A DNA stretch of 25,757 nt from an uncultured Candidatus Rokubacteria bacterium (GTDB taxonomy: Bacteria > Methylomirabilota > Methylomirabilia > Rokubacteriales > CSP1-6), in the NCBI GenBank assembly GCA_963789955.1, contig CAWBMV010000002.1, forward strand, positions 1-25,757, in the 5' to 3' direction. Each line of letters begins with the position of its first letter. Within the stretch, counting starts at the first letter, position 1. Positions 1,556 through 5,979 of this stretch are shown here, piece by piece. The notes beneath the pieces were generated by a model, which had not been told where the DNA came from, ran no database searches, and worked only from the letters and a program-made list of their open reading frames with translations. Position numbers and translations under genes: made by a program.

Positions 1556-2765
1556 ATGGACGCTTGGTACCAGTGCGAGGTGCCCTACCCGTTCGTGCCG
1601 CAGGAGGTGCTCGACCGCGGCCGACTCGGTGCGCGCGAGCCTGCCCAACCGGTACTGCGACCCGAAGGTGGCCGCCGATCTCTTCGAGGAGGTCGATCGA
1701 CGAGTATCTGCTGTGCGACGACCTCGGCCTCAACGTCGGCGCGATCGAGCACCACGCCGGCATCAACTCGCTTCTCGGCGCGAATCCGATGCTGGTCGGC
1801 ATCCTCGCCCGCCAGACGAGGAAGGTGCGCATCCTGAGCCTCGGCACCTTGATCTCGCTGCGCCCGGATCCGGTGCGGGTCGCCGAGGAATACGCGACGG
1901 CGGACGTGATCTCGCGCGGCCGGCTCGAGATCGGCTTCGTCAAATCGGGCGGCAGCGAGATGGCGTCGAGCAACGCGAACCCGGTGGACAACGTCGAGCG
2001 CTACTGGGAGGCGATCGACCTCATCAAGAAGACGCTCACCCCTCACGACGGCCCGTTCAGCTGGGAGGGCAAGCACTTCACCCACCGCCACGTGAACATC
2101 TGGCCCCGCCCTGGCAGCGGCCGCATCCCCGCATGTGGGCGGCCACCGGCGATCCCGCAGACCGCGGCCGAGGTCGGCCGGCGCGGCATGGTCCACGTGC
2201 TCGTGCTGCGCGGCCCCGAGGGAACCAAGCGGGCCTACGCGGCCTATCGCAAGGCGCGCGCCGAGCCGGGCTTGCCGAAGGCGACGACCGACAACTTCGC
2301 CTACGCGGCCTTCGTCTATGTCGGCGACACCGACGAGGAGGGACTGCGCGTCGGGAGCAAGCTGCTGTGGTTTCTCAACACCAGCCTCAAGTCGGCGCCG
2401 CAGTTCTCGAAGTTCCTGCCCGGCACCGCGCCGCCGGAGGCCGCGCCGCAGATCTATCGCACGGCGCCGAAGCCGCACGGCAACGCCGAGACGGGCGTCG
2501 CTCTCGGCGGGCCAGAACGCCGCGCGGCTGACGTCCATGAGCGCCGAGCAGGCCATCGCGCAGGGCATCCTGTTCGCCGGCAATCCGGACACCGTCTACA
2601 AGCAGATCATGGACTTCTACGACAAGGTCGGCGGCTTCGGCCACCTGAGTCATGATCGGCCGCTCGGGCTTCATGACCCACGCCGAGTCGGAAAAGAGCA
2701 TCCGCCTCTTCTCGAACGAAGTCCTGCCGCGTCTTCGCGAGATCAAGCCGGTCACGGTCGACTGA
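1556..2765 (+). CDS. LLM class (luciferase-like) flavin-dependent oxidoreductase (frameshifted)
   Basis: EHH, PVRVAEEYATADVISRGRLEIG, FSWEGKHF...NIWPRPWQRPHP, GNPDTV and SIRLFSNEVLPRL* joined across frames; TGA at 2763-2765. Confidence 0.85.
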
Positions 2766-2768
2766 CGG

Positions 2769-3560
2769 TCAGCGTCCGGTGAAGCGCGGCGCGCGATGCT
2801 CGCGGTGAGCGATCATCCCCTCGTCGATGTCTTTGCTCCATTCCAGGGCGTGACGAAGCGCATCTGATAGCTCTCGCGCCGCGCCGAAGCCGGCCGTGGT
2901 GCGGACGTTCATGATGCGCTTGGCGCCTCGCGTCGCGATCGGGCCGCTGGCCGAGACGCGGGCGGCGAGCGCGTGCGCCTCGGGAAGCAGTCGCGCCGCG
3001 GGATATACCGCGAGCACGAGCCGGAGCCGTTCCATCTCCGCGGCGTCGATCTCGCGCCCGGTGCAGATCAGCTCGAGCGCCCGCGCCCGGCCCACGATAC
3101 CCGGCAGGCGGACGGGGCCGCCGGCGCCAGGGAACCCGCCCCACAGCGCTTCGGGCAGCGCCCACGTCGCGTGCGCCGCGGCCAGCCGGATATCGCACGC
3201 GAGCGAGAGCTCGGCCGCGCCCGCGCGCGCGGCGCCGTTGAACGCCGCGATCACGATCTGCGGCAGGGCTTCGAGCGCATCGTAGAGACGATTCGCCGTG
3301 CGGACCATGTCGAGGATCTGGTCCTTCGTGTAGCTCGCCCGGACGACCGGATTCAGGATCCCCATCGAGAAGAATTCGGCGCCGCCACCGGTGATGACGA
3401 CAGCCTGCGTCTCGTCGTCCTCCCTCAGGCGCTCGACGATTCCCTGCAAGGTCAGCAGCACGTCTCGCGTCAGCCGGTTCTGATCGCCCGGCCTGTCCAG
3501 GGTGATCGTCACGACGCGACCGTCCCGCGCGACCTTGACTTCCTCGGTTCCTGGTGTCAT
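2769..3560 (-). CDS. Enoyl-CoA hydratase/isomerase (crotonase) family protein
   Basis: AGGAG SD, ATG at 3560; [61 protein letters not shown]-terminal RAPRFTGR. Confidence 0.9.
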
Positions 3561-4192
3561 CCGCGCTCTCCTGTGAGCAGACCGCCGAAGATTCGGGCGC
3601 CGAGCTTGAAGCCTTCGACGAGCGTGGTGCCGGCGCCTTCCGCCGCTGGATTCTCGGCCCGCCACGCCCTCAGGTGCTCTTCCGACCGGAAGAAGTTGAT
3701 CGTCGTTCAGAGCGAATCGGCGATCTTGCAGCGATCGTCGGCCCGCTGACCGATCCAGAGCATCACGTCCGACCCTTCGGGTCGGGGCCCCTCCGGGGTC
3801 GACGTGAGCGCCAGCGGCGCCCCGCAATGATGGCAGCGCGAGCGGATCTCGACCGGTTGCCCGATCATCGGAGCGATGCCGAGCGCGTCCACGGCGCAGC
3901 AGGCGAACCGATCCTGACCATCGGGCAGCCGTACCACGAACGGAGTGGGCGACGCCGTGAACGGATAGGCGACGTCGATCTTCCCGTCCCGGATACGGAT
4001 CAGGTCCTCGTCGTCCAGAGCAACGAAGGCCTGGGAGATCTCGTCGATGGGAACCGGTCCGCCTCGCTCGACGAAGAGCTGGAGGACACGCCGGAACTCC
4101 GGCCTCTCGCGCGCGGCGCGTCGAGCCAGCCAGAGGCTTTGAAAGTCGCGCGCGGCGAACTCCTCGGCCGTCCTGATCTCAAAGCCCGCCAC
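3557..4192 (-). CDS. merB: Organomercurial lyase (MerB)-like protein, predicted selenoprotein (Sec162 encoded by TGA at 3709..3707), 211 aa
   Basis: GTG start with [22 protein letters not shown] (C99/D102), RCHHCG (C120), then [21 protein letters not shown]...TLVEGFKLG, which matches the MerB C-terminal pattern SFCCHVHFFAS...W...SVHEAFGLG. The final TGA at 3559..3557 overlaps the downstream ATG. Confidence 0.88.
3677..3694 (-). promoter_or_regulatory. Bacterial SECIS element (Sec insertion hairpin) inside the merB-like CDS
   Basis: Minus strand reads UGA-ACGACGAUCAAC-UUCUUCC-GGUC-GGAAGAG: 6 Watson-Crick pairs plus one U-G pair, with a 4-nt GGUC loop after a 19-nt spacer from the UGA. Confidence 0.8.
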
Positions 4193-4270
4193 TCGTGCTC
4201 TCCTGTCGGCGCATGGTCTGTTGCCCTACCCGGGAGCAGGATAAACTCTCGCACAAGCCAGGAGGGCGCG

Positions 4271-5155
4271 ATGTACGAGGGCTTCCGCCGCTTCGACATC
4301 CAGACCAGCGATCCACAGGTAGCGATCCGTGGCGTGGTGGGCGGATCGGGCCCGCCGGTGCTGCTCCTGCACGGCAATCCGCTCACGTACTACCACTGGC
4401 GCTTCGTCGCGCCGCGCCTGGCGACGGACTTCACCGTGGTCGCCACCGACCTGCGGGGCTACGGCGACAGCGGCAAGCCGCGCGGCTTACCCGACCACAG
4501 CAACTACTCATTCAGACGCATGGCGCAGGACCAGGTCGACGTCATGCGCGAGCTCGGCTTCGCGCGATTCATGGTGGCCGGCCACGACCGGGGGGCGCGC
4601 ACCGCGTATCGTATGACGCTCGACCATCCGGCGGCAGTGCAGAAGCTCTGCGCGATCGACATCCTGCCGACCCATCACGTGTGGACCCACGTCACGCGCG
4701 AATGGGCGCTCAACAGCTATCACTGGTCGTTCATGGCGCAGCCCTACGATTTCCCCGAGCGTCTCCTGGCCGGCAAGGAGGAGTACTACATCCGCCTCAA
4801 GCTCGGCTCCCAGGGGTTGGGCAAGGGCGGCTTCACGGAAGACGCCATCCGCGAGTACGTGCGCTGCTGCACGCCCGAGAACATCCACGGCGTCTGCGAG
4901 GACTACCGCGCCGGCGCCACGATCGACTTCGAGATGGACAAGAAGGACCTCGATGCCGGGAACAAGATCGCCTGCCCCGTGCTGGTCATCGTCGGCGGCC
5001 AGAGCCACACCGCCAAGTTCTACGGCTATGAAAAAGGCTGGTCGGCCTACGTCACCAATCTCGTCGGCTGTGTGGCGCTGCCGTGCGGCCACTACCCGGC
5101 CGAGCAAGCTCCCGACGAAACCTACACCCAGCTCCACAAGTTCTTCAGCTCCTGA
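4271..5155 (+). CDS. Fluoroacetate/haloacetate dehalogenase-like alpha/beta hydrolase
   Basis: GGAGG SD, ATG 4271; DLRGYGDS, YSFRRMAQD, GHDRGAR, DILPT, YHWSF, CEDYRAG, CGHY; intact frame. Confidence 0.9.
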   Translation: MYEGFRRFDIQTSDPQVAIRGVVGGSGPPVLLLHGNPLTYYHWRFVAPRLATDFTVVATDLRGYGDSGKPRGLPDHSNYSFRRMAQDQVDVMRELGFARFMVAGHDRGARTAYRMTLDHPAAVQKLCAIDILPTHHVWTHVTREWALNSYHWSFMAQPYDFPERLLAGKEEYYIRLKLGSQGLGKGGFTEDAIREYVRCCTPENIHGVCEDYRAGATIDFEMDKKDLDAGNKIACPVLVIVGGQSHTAKFYGYEKGWSAYVTNLVGCVALPCGHYPAEQAPDETYTQLHKFFSS

Positions 5156-5170
5156 GGAGGCGATCGACCG

Positions 5171-5509
5171 ATGAGTGCCGATCCGAAGCAACCGGGTGAG
5201 CTCGACGGTGTGATGGCGCAGGTCGGGCTTGTCGAGTATCAGTCGGGCTCGGTCGTCAGCCGGACGCTCGTCAAGAAGGCCTCCGGCACGATCACGGCTT
5301 TCGCGTTCGACGCCGGTGAAGGTCTCAGCGAGCACACCGCGCCGTATGACGCGCTCGTCCTGGGAGTCGACGGGACGGCCGAGATCTCGATCGCACAGGT
5401 CGCCCACCGCGTTGCAGCGGGGCAGCTCCTCAAGCTGCCCGCGGGTCAGCCACACGCGGTCAAGGCGATCACGCGTTTCAAGATGATCCTCGTGATGATC
5501 AGGGCGTAG
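5171..5509 (+). CDS. Cupin domain protein
   Basis: GAGGAGG SD; FAFDAGEGLSEHTAP and LPAGQPHAV cupin motifs. Confidence 0.88.
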   Translation: MSADPKQPGELDGVMAQVGLVEYQSGSVVSRTLVKKASGTITAFAFDAGEGLSEHTAPYDALVLGVDGTAEISIAQVAHRVAAGQLLKLPAGQPHAVKAITRFKMILVMIRA

Positions 5510-5538
5510 CCGCCGATCGGCCGCCGCTCACCGCGACG

Positions 5539-5979
5539 CTAGAACAGTCCGCCCGTCTGAAAGCTGACGCCGACCACGACGAGCGCCACCGCGAGCGCCG
5601 TGACGACAGCGATGTGCACGGCGAGGAATCTCAAGTTGGAGTCGTCGAGGCGCGGGATCAGCCGCAGCCGCGCATGGAGGGCGAGCGCCACCGTCAGCCC
5701 CAGCAAGACCACCTTCAGGCCGATGCGCGCTTCGAGCGTGTCGCCGAACGCGAGCCAGCGGCTGATCGGGGCGAACTGGCCGGCGAGCCAGGCGCCGGTC
5801 AGCACCTGGATGATGAGCGCCGGAATGCCGATCCGCTCGAAGGGCTCCTCGAATGCGCGCAGGATGCGCGCGTCGCGGCGGGCGAGCGCGCGCGGCAGCA
5901 CAGTGGTCGCGAGCACCAGATGGCCGCCGGCCCAGACGCATGCCCCCAGGACGTGCAAGGTCAGCAGCAGAGCGCGCAC
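5539..5979 (-). CDS. CopD-like four-TM membrane protein
   Basis: LHVLGACVWAGGHL at the N-terminus, four hydrophobic segments, LKVVLL...LHARLRLIP. Confidence 0.75.
   Translation of the reverse strand: MRALLLTLHVLGACVWAGGHLVLATTVLPRALARRDARILRAFEEPFERIGIPALIIQVLTGAWLAGQFAPISRWLAFGDTLEARIGLKVVLLGLTVALALHARLRLIPRLDDSNLRFLAVHIAVVTALAVALVVVGVSFQTGGLF

Follow-up and report, generated by a model that had tools for sequence, protein, structure and literature searches.

A MerB-fold gene with predicted selenocysteine at the catalytic Cys159 position in Candidatus Rokubacteria and its relatives in mer-like operons

We analyzed a 25,757-nt stretch of DNA from an uncultured Candidatus Rokubacteria bacterium, of a group common in soil (contig CAWBMV010000002.1 of assembly GCA_963789955.1; this whole stretch is hereafter called the window), which contains a gene for a predicted selenoprotein of the organomercurial lyase (MerB) fold. 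On the minus strand, the frame runs from a GTG codon at 4192 through 161 codons to a TGA at 3709-3707, stays open for 49 more codons and ends at a second TGA at 3559-3557, which overlaps the ATG of a 263-amino-acid (aa) enoyl-CoA hydratase-family gene as ATGA. No in-frame ATG, GTG or TTG that could start a separate open reading frame was found within the segment behind the first TGA (Table 1). The 211-aa read-through product matched Pfam MerB (PF03243) with 107.4 bits against a gathering cut-off of 27 and covered the entire profile (1-126 of 126), whereas the part before the TGA scored 62 bits and the part after it 27 bits. In an alignment with Escherichia coli MerB, Cys99, Asp102, Cys120 and TGA codon 162 corresponded to Cys96, Asp99, Cys117 and Cys159, and Thr163 aligned with position 160 of the solved structures (3f2g is the C160S mutant). 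A preliminary description of this DNA had proposed the same extended frame with its ATGA overlap and the same four correspondences; both were borne out, and the family profile did extend across the TGA. The predicted structure, based on a 76-sequence alignment, had a predicted local distance difference test (pLDDT) score of 92 and strong matches to MerB and MerB2 only. All 11 Foldseek matches at E<=0.001 were MerB or MerB2, crystal structures matched the model with Z scores of 18.4-19.6 (19.6 for MerB2 and 19.0 for MerB), and the next fold match after the MerB group was the copper chaperone NosL at Z 5.7.

Table 1. Features of the MerB-like locus in the window
Feature	Position	Strand	Details
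Predicted MerB-fold selenoprotein gene, 211 aa	3557..4192	minus	GTG start, single in-frame TGA read as selenocysteine, terminal TGA
In-frame TGA, predicted Sec162, equivalent of MerB Cys159	3707..3709	minus	alignment; identical codon in second copy, contig C36
Cys99, equivalent of MerB Cys96	3896..3898	minus	alignment
Asp102, equivalent of MerB Asp99	3887..3889	minus	alignment
Cys120-x-x-Cys123, Cys120 equivalent to structural MerB Cys117	3824..3835	minus	alignment
C-terminal segment, 49 codons 3' of the TGA, under purifying selection	3560..3706	minus	frame, selection test
Predicted bacterial SECIS hairpin within the coding sequence	3677..3694	minus	7-bp stem; GGUC loop 3687-3684, 19 nt after the UGA
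Enoyl-CoA hydratase-family gene, ATGA-coupled	2769..3560	minus	context shared by 8 loci of a single genus; putative functional link
Divergent alpha/beta-hydrolase gene	4274..5155	plus	at the place of the merR-like gene in relatives
Remnant of a MerR-type promoter	4238..4262	minus	-10-like box kept (4243-4238); dyad decayed (4262-4248, 9/12 mismatches); -35 replaced

On comparative sequence evidence, UGA162 is almost certainly decoded as selenocysteine (Sec). We compared a set of 30 returned loci and 100 further regions from the PF03243 match list, which gave 132 domains after removal of 6 duplicates and 3 short fragments; 130 of them had a residue at the Cys159 column. This column held TGA in 108 domains and TGC or TGT in the other 22, and neither TAA, TAG nor Trp occurred in any of the 130. 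A second copy on contig C36 of the same genome was 94% identical and had TGA at the identical codon. Over most of its length, the window contig shares about 90% identity with a part of contig C36, and therefore the bin holds two close populations. Positions 1-25702 of the window are mostly duplicated at 133519-163567 of contig C36 of this genome (G000) at 78-97% identity, and several window genes look broken by frameshifts, probably through assembly errors. Two relatives among the named genomes, both Candidatus Rokubacteria, also have TGA. None of 40 listed variants (of 79) from four other public runs fell at 3707-3709, and contigs of three public runs bridged the TGA codon, the two differences seen in one of these runs lying elsewhere; these are contigs of relatives, not reads of the source sample. 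Six RNA runs gave small shares of the stretch only, and the contigs that one of them yielded across most of the gene are those of a relative and carry no information on expression or habitat. In a comparison of the window gene with 12 close relatives, the ratio of nonsynonymous to synonymous differences (pN/pS) was 0.39 before the TGA and 0.20 after the hairpin. The genome carries selA, selB and the tRNA-Sec gene selC together on contig C1 and selD on contig C6, all on other contigs than the window and in the bin that mixes two close populations; selD itself has an in-frame TGA and is frameshifted in the assembly. In the Rokubacteria-containing phylum, selA was found in 214 of 251 genomes. The preliminary description had predicted Sec at this position and a gene recorded as cut short. 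The former agrees with the TGA in the second copy and in relatives, the four sel genes and the conserved hairpin described below, and the latter with the 118 of 120 listed homologs that end at the residue before the TGA, the truncated database homologs including NCBI records named organomercurial lyase.

Matches to PF03243 over its cut-off were found in 158 of the phylum's 251 genomes, and most of these have a TGA within the frame; 150 of the 217 matches were listed. The motif of the window protein is common to 69 TGA loci from at least 63 genomes (hand count), so the case in which homologs never carry TGA and do not conserve the hairpin did not occur, nor did either of the other two outcomes named beforehand as refuting (TGC or TGT in reads, no Sec machinery in the genome). 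A FastTree tree of 182 sequences grouped 68 of the 69 loci (one was too short) with support 1.0; this clade also contains a divergent TGA locus, three loci with Cys and two proteins from databases. One Cys member (G169) comes from a 98%-complete genome without a selA match, and the two others come from selA-bearing genomes. The deep branches of the tree are weak, and it does not establish independent origins of Sec in different groups. A second Cys (98) directly precedes Cys99 in 64 of the 69 members. As a further observation, the clade keeps a CxxC pair where MerB has its structural Cys117, and this pair could bind zinc; in E. coli MerB, only the first of the two Cys is present. The preliminary description had also taken a constant +3 offset from MerB and the similar lengths (211 versus 212 aa) as evidence, which proved to be a coincidence. 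Most clade members are about 12 residues longer in the N-terminal domain and have 173 aa up to the TGA, compared with 161 aa in the window form, and the offset is accidental because the sub-lineage of the window has a 12-residue deletion. The short form itself is real, being common to a 61-member cluster.

The Sec insertion sequence (SECIS) is less evident from the window than from its relatives. The hairpin has a GGUC loop, a 7-bp stem, a spacing of 19 nt and a free energy of -7.8 kcal/mol in a 40-nt piece, in agreement with the bacterial SECIS model given in the accessible part of PMC13188914 (loop of 3-9 nt with G first, stem of 4-16 bp, spacing of 16-37 nt, minimum free energy <= -7.5). 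The isolated stem alone gave -7.1 kcal/mol, and a 60-nt piece around it folds differently. Single-sequence folding was rejected as evidence, with z scores of -0.11 to +0.96 against shuffles in four folding windows. Because the single-sequence fold is no better than shuffles, the significance of the hairpin comes from the comparison with relatives only. Thus, the SECIS-like hairpin that had been noted directly after the TGA is present and conserved in relatives but not significant on the window sequence alone. Across the 69 clade loci, the four codons of the stem and loop do not vary, and codon choice in the hairpin is fixed: CGG in 69/69 (36% elsewhere in the same genes), TCG in 69/69 (46% elsewhere) and, for Glu, GAA in 66/68 (17% elsewhere, where GAG makes up 83%). 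Invariant residues outside the hairpin vary freely at synonymous sites in the same loci, and between the window gene and its 12 close relatives pS was 0.10 inside the hairpin and 0.46-0.47 outside. A hairpin of <= -5 kcal/mol was present in 106 of the 108 TGA loci versus 2 of the 22 Cys loci, and only one of these two has the 19-nt spacing. Two stem pairs changed on both sides, and none of 500 shuffles reached the covariation score in 61 of the 108 TGA loci, hand-picked for diversity from several groups; related sequences can, however, score above shuffles even when no structure exists, and in 42 of the 61 the outer columns (15-34) do not pair. A separate clade member with a Cys codon, L134 (G162), has kept the SECIS hairpin and contains a frameshift, and looks like a recent Sec-to-Cys change.

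By its profile scores, the window protein is a member of the Pfam MerB family and not a canonical MerB equivalog. Its model has the same fold as MerB of E. coli R831b (PDB 3F0O; Z 19.0, root-mean-square deviation 2.8 over 183 residues), and the two proteins have Cys96, Asp99 and Cys117 in common, whereas Cys159 and Cys160 of E. coli MerB are replaced with the predicted Sec and Thr, at about 31% identity over 143 residues. The canonical MerB models NF009710 and NF033555 gave 64.4 bits against a cut-off of 193 and 52 against 200. While canonical MerB is encoded in a MerR-regulated mer operon with merA, the window copy has no merA nearby and no such operon. The best named matches were Bacillus MerB3 (30% identity, 90 bits) and pMR68 MerB1 of Pseudomonas K-62 (33%, 84 bits), followed by E. 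coli MerB (61 bits). These two and the alphaproteobacterial MerBA fusions are the closest annotated relatives, at 30-38% identity and on the same broad branch of the tree, where the support for a sister relation to the clade is weak (0.55-0.7). All three are Cys proteins, and the pMR68 and MerBA loci include merA. Since pMR68 MerB1 and Bacillus MerB3 also fall below the MerB cut-off (72/193 and 62/193), failing it does not exclude activity.

The closest parallel is SaoL (NF040728), which, in the accessible part of its description (Haft and Gwadz, bioRxiv 10.1101/2022.07.06.499078), is likewise a PF03243 protein with Sec at the Cys159 equivalent. The same source gives SaoL of Clostridioides difficile with Cys99, Asp102 and Sec162, database entries about 50 residues short and no activity shown, and places SaoL, with a CU motif, in a nine-gene SAO locus of strict anaerobes. 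Sec at this position in SaoL is also listed in two reviews. The window protein thus appears to resemble SaoL in decoding and metal site. However, it has Leu-Sec where SaoL has the CU motif, and none of the 108 TGA domains has a Cys before the Sec. The SaoL model reached 57.8 bits against a cut-off of 140 and matched residues 50-129 only, and no SaoL over cut-off was found in the 251 phylum genomes. The window gene is flanked by hydrolase and hydratase genes instead of an SAO neighbourhood, and its relatives are linked to MerR-type operons. SaoC and SaoB gave no match in the window genome, and control genomes were likewise without a match. Membership in SaoL was therefore rejected by score, CU motif and neighbourhood, and the comparison, in which the tree contains no SaoL sequence, points to a clade separate from SaoL, with members in at least 63 genomes of the phylum that includes Rokubacteria. 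A search of the ESM Atlas returned MerB clusters only, the top one automatically named SaoL, and was not used as evidence. As to novelty, the concept is not new, since SaoL has Sec162 at exactly this position, but the clade and its context are not those of SaoL. Neither the clade, its Sec-rich mer-like operon nor a MerB with two Sec was described in the literature searched or in NCBIfam release 20, although Haft and Tolstoy 2025, Deng et al. 2026, preprint supplements and BSepDB may list some of the genes. A term search found no mention of MerB in the accessible main text of PMC13326102 and PMC12013277.

We examined clade flanks of 1.5-3 kb, which are often cut by contig ends. At least one neighbour of a recurring mer-like set was present at 27 of the 69 loci: a glutaredoxin-like gene with TGA in a UxxC motif at 25, a zinc-ribbon gene at 23, a MerR-like gene at 20, a MerT-like gene at 14, a MerP-like heavy-metal-associated (HMA) domain gene at 12 (most with UxxU), a MerF-like gene at 11, MerE at 3 and, at 2, a flavoprotein reductase whose redox centre contains TGA. 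Two MerF-like neighbours tested passed the NCBIfam cut-off, and two UxxU MerP-like neighbours passed that of the UxxU metal-binding selenoprotein NF041115 (110-114 versus 95), while the glutaredoxin-like neighbour stayed below that of the Uxx-star family NF041212 (55-63 versus 66). Such UxxU and Uxx-star-like genes stand beside clade members elsewhere but not beside the window copy. The Sec neighbours have conserved hairpins of their own. None of the selenoprotein operons that the accessible part of PMC13188914 lists combines UxxU or Uxx-star genes with a Sec-type MerB under MerR control. The best six MerR-like neighbours were 52-56% identical to pMR68 MerR and 59-67% identical to the regulator of a merBA operon from Xanthobacter, and they share the three-Cys spacing of these proteins. 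In each of the 20 loci next to a MerR-like gene, a TTG -35 box and a -10 box enclose a 19-bp spacer, which holds the dyad CTGTAG-N3-CTACAG with 0-2 mismatches; the dyad was found in none of 47 other loci and in 1 of 2000 random windows (two loci had too little upstream DNA). Regulator and operator thus match those of pMR68, whose operon, according to the available text of PMC3737084, gives Hg(II) and phenylmercury resistance. No MerA over cut-off was found in the fetched flanks of the 20 loci with MerR and operator, and in whole genomes, with six candidates scored per genome, MerA passed in 8 of 251. The glutaredoxin, zinc-ribbon and MerF neighbours also occur beside Cys homologs in other families of the class, and hence the MerR-regulated mer-like setting looks ancestral. 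Taken together, the original setting of the clade appears to have been a mer-like operon under MerR control, rich in selenoproteins and in most cases lacking MerA. L033, which counts among both the 69 clade loci and the 20 MerR loci, comes from an unpublished genome (G076), as does one of the 22 Cys loci (L013 of G034); the unpublished genomes G044, G216 and G217 enter phylum tallies only, and no conclusion depends on unpublished genomes.

Individual loci show how these genes are combined. L069:162-3618, L041, L055, L057, L092 and others have a divergent merR, the Sec-type MerB gene, the UxxC glutaredoxin-like, zinc-ribbon, MerF-like, MerT-like and UxxU MerP-like genes and a second MerR-family gene, with no merA in their fetched flanks. 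In L062:1225-2562 and L076, a flavoprotein disulfide reductase with TGA for the second redox Cys lies inside the mer-like cluster; it has no C-terminal Cys pair and falls below every cut-off shown. The MerA-profile matches listed include nine with one TGA and two with two. In L029 and L076, a Cys MerB of the E. coli type (37-39% identical) adjoins the Sec-type gene in the same cluster, and thus both kinds are kept side by side.

The window lineage has left this setting, with MerR control and partners lost. A coupled hydratase gene was found at 8 loci in 7 genomes of the window's genus, most of them with the divergent hydrolase at the place of merR. The operator decays stepwise within the genus, with 3 mismatches in L059, 5-7 in five others and 9 in the window, the -10 side being kept. 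No operator with 0-1 mismatch was found in the window genome, and a sigma-70 scan of 2500-5300 found no promoter. Purifying selection on the window gene continues despite the loss of the operator. Beyond the divergent hydrolase, at 5171-5979, lie genes for a cupin and a CopD-like membrane protein, which occur together in a few loci of the same genus.

Genes of this kind are not confined to the clade. We scanned metagenome contigs with a pattern of TGA, 13 free bases and a 16-base hairpin core and obtained at least 120 loci, 116 of those listed being MerB-like (E<0.001) when the TGA was masked along with the ten codons behind it, in a test whose profile was built from the phylum set. The window clade accounts for only 18 of the 120 listed matches. 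The others comprise 57 with Cys/Asp/Sec and a different signature, 10 with Cys/Glu/Sec, 8 unresolved and 27 in which TGA occupies both catalytic positions (Cys96 and Cys159), Glu replacing Asp99 in nearly all of these 27. In the double-TGA group, a second conserved hairpin lies behind the first TGA, so that each TGA has its own. Double-TGA loci include L160, L164, L166, L215, L235 and 22 others in metagenomes and L119 and L122 in the phylum; no NCBIfam family fits the three of them that were tested, and these genes are possibly more novel than the window gene. The accessible part of the 2026 selenoprotein catalogue gives one MerB-like family, SaoL, with one Sec and the CU motif. Three pattern matches tested hit the SaoL model only, at 39-41 bits against the cut-off of 140, and two tested pass Pfam MerB. 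The GC contents of the pattern matches, 0.42-0.73, suggest several phyla. In viral contigs, the pattern matched twice, neither match passing the masked test. The 57-member Cys/Asp/Sec group (within L156-L275) has a Trp-rich signature, and no mer neighbours were seen for its phylum relatives (L043, L111, L112 and L118). Other Sec-bearing MerB-like groups in the phylum had mer neighbours at 0/21 and 0/5 loci.

We propose that SelB would be recruited by the hairpin 19 nt downstream and bring Sec-tRNA to UGA162, giving a 211-aa MerB-fold protein whose metal site would consist of Cys99, Asp102 and Sec162. An organomercurial (or Hg(II)) would most likely be bound between Cys99 and Sec162, and Asp102 would then protonate the carbon so that the Hg-C bond is cleaved, as in MerB. 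Speculatively, selenium could hold the released metal until it is taken off by a thiol of the cell or by a glutaredoxin. We lean toward the view that these three residues bind and cleave organomercurials; the conserved residues, the fold and the mer-type context of the clade argue for this reading with moderate confidence. According to the available text of PMC10114901, Cys159 of MerB binds Hg and transfers its proton to Asp99, and the release of Hg to MerA may be assisted by Cys160.

Several observations weigh against this reading. The window protein has Sec at the proton-donating Cys159 of the published mechanism and Thr at position 160. A selenolate cannot give that proton, owing to the low pKa of Sec. 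Without MerA, and with a selenolate and a Thr at position 160, the protein must therefore obtain its proton and release its product in other ways than MerB does. The window copy lacks an operator (9/12 mismatches) and is coupled to an enoyl-CoA hydratase gene, and the window genome, 87% complete, showed neither MerA nor a UxxU binder over cut-off, MerT or a mer-type MerR; it also gave no MerF match, although control genomes were likewise without a match. Within the clade, MerA over cut-off was found in only 2 of 63 genomes, and 42 of the 69 loci have no mer-like neighbour in the fetched flanks. The neighbour regulators tested fell below the MerR cut-off and scored about equally on CueR and CadR/PbrR models, and therefore the metal need not be mercury. 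Accordingly, of the identity as an organomercurial lyase given in the preliminary description, the family and fold stand (Pfam and Foldseek), but lyase function is only moderately likely for a window copy outside a mer locus, with a decayed operator and no MerA, MerT, MerF or mer-type MerR found. We can only infer such activity there, because the operator is lost and no mer partners were found in the genome. Because the lineage has lost MerR control and mer partners, the protein would probably work alone, as an unregulated scavenger or demethylase.

The regulator scores also suit a protein for another soft metal or organometal(loid), such as copper, cadmium, lead, organotin, organolead or arsenic, acting as a chaperone or sink and not as a lyase that turns over. 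We rate this as rather unlikely. The regulators score almost as high with CueR, CadR/PbrR and ZntR models as with MerR, CopZ models fit the HMA neighbour too, MerA is nearly absent in the phylum and NosL is the next fold match; moreover, MerB binds other metals, and the SaoL authors doubt mercury specificity in the accessible part of their preprint (bioRxiv 10.1101/2022.07.06.499078). On the other hand, Asp99 is kept, whereas the copper-binding MerB mutant in the available text of PMC10114901 is D99S, the operator and regulator belong to the same type as those of pMR68, whose mer operon has been tested, and MerF, MerT and MerE are mer-system genes. Co-option in the window lineage for a non-metal role, such as thiol/selenol redox chemistry or the cleavage of C-S/C-Se bonds during catabolism together with the hydratase, the hydrolase and the luciferase-like monooxygenases nearby, seems comparably improbable. 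Persisting selection after operator loss, the coupling of the hydratase in 8 loci from 7 genomes, the Sec-bearing groups without mer neighbours and the excess of the family (158/251 genomes) over MerA (8/251) would fit such a change, but the hydratase context is limited to one genus while other non-mer contexts vary freely, the active-site triad is the same as in mer-linked members, and no such activity of the MerB fold was found in the literature searched. Finally, a TGA that is a true stop, an error or a Trp codon is hardly credible and Trp recoding, a split gene and a pseudogene were rejected: assembly frameshifts do occur elsewhere (selD, the third MerB-like gene), the hairpin alone is not significant and the decoding is predicted from sequence, but TGA stands at the same codon in 69/69 clade loci from 63 genomes and is bridged by contigs of three other public runs, the tail is more conserved than the head, homologs have Cys and never Trp, and TGA also serves as the stop of this gene.

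Returning to organomercurial cleavage as the preferred reading, the counts bear on how such genes are surveyed. Surveys of organomercury degraders screen for Cys159, and one covering 84,032 genomes counted MerB in a single Rokubacteria genome (PMC8261052); PF03243 is present in 158 of the 251 phylum genomes. Because its database entries end early, the gene has probably escaped surveys of mercury-detoxifying microbes, and if the proteins are active, the methylmercury demethylation potential of soil communities is undercounted. The same source calls MerB without MerA, the state of over half of merB genomes, unexplained, and the Sec-rich, MerR-regulated operon without merA offers a concrete test system for this question. 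The Cys/Asp/Sec sites and the metagenomic Sec/Glu/Sec sites could test the accepted MerB mechanism, from the proton of Cys159 to the later release of Hg, and raise the question of how a selenoenzyme escapes poisoning by its own product. More tentatively, and with less confidence than we have in cleavage itself, Rokubacteria and their kin may possess a selenium-based mer system without MerA. MerR would switch on the Sec-type MerB, a Sec-glutaredoxin, a double-Sec MerP-like binder and MerF/MerT-like transporters; organomercurials would be cleaved and the mercury trapped or exported on selenium instead of being reduced, and copies freed from the operon would be stand-alone methylmercury scavengers. 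If this is true, such a system, along with the other overlooked Sec and double-Sec groups that have the same SECIS, would represent an extensive hidden capacity for mercury demethylation in soils and sediments, and it would explain in testable form how MerB functions where a genome has no MerA.

A genome-wide scan for TGA followed by a GGU-loop hairpin yielded 17 candidates in the window genome, which were mostly noise, and thus the scan does not define its selenoproteome. The only real-looking candidates were three MerB-like genes and a DsbA-like UxxC gene. The third MerB-like gene (C14:84064-84261, L008) belongs to the Cys/Glu/Sec group, has the same SECIS core and is frameshifted. The DsbA-like gene (C6:128189, minus strand) has an in-frame TGA in its UxxC motif and a hairpin, and is another likely selenoprotein.

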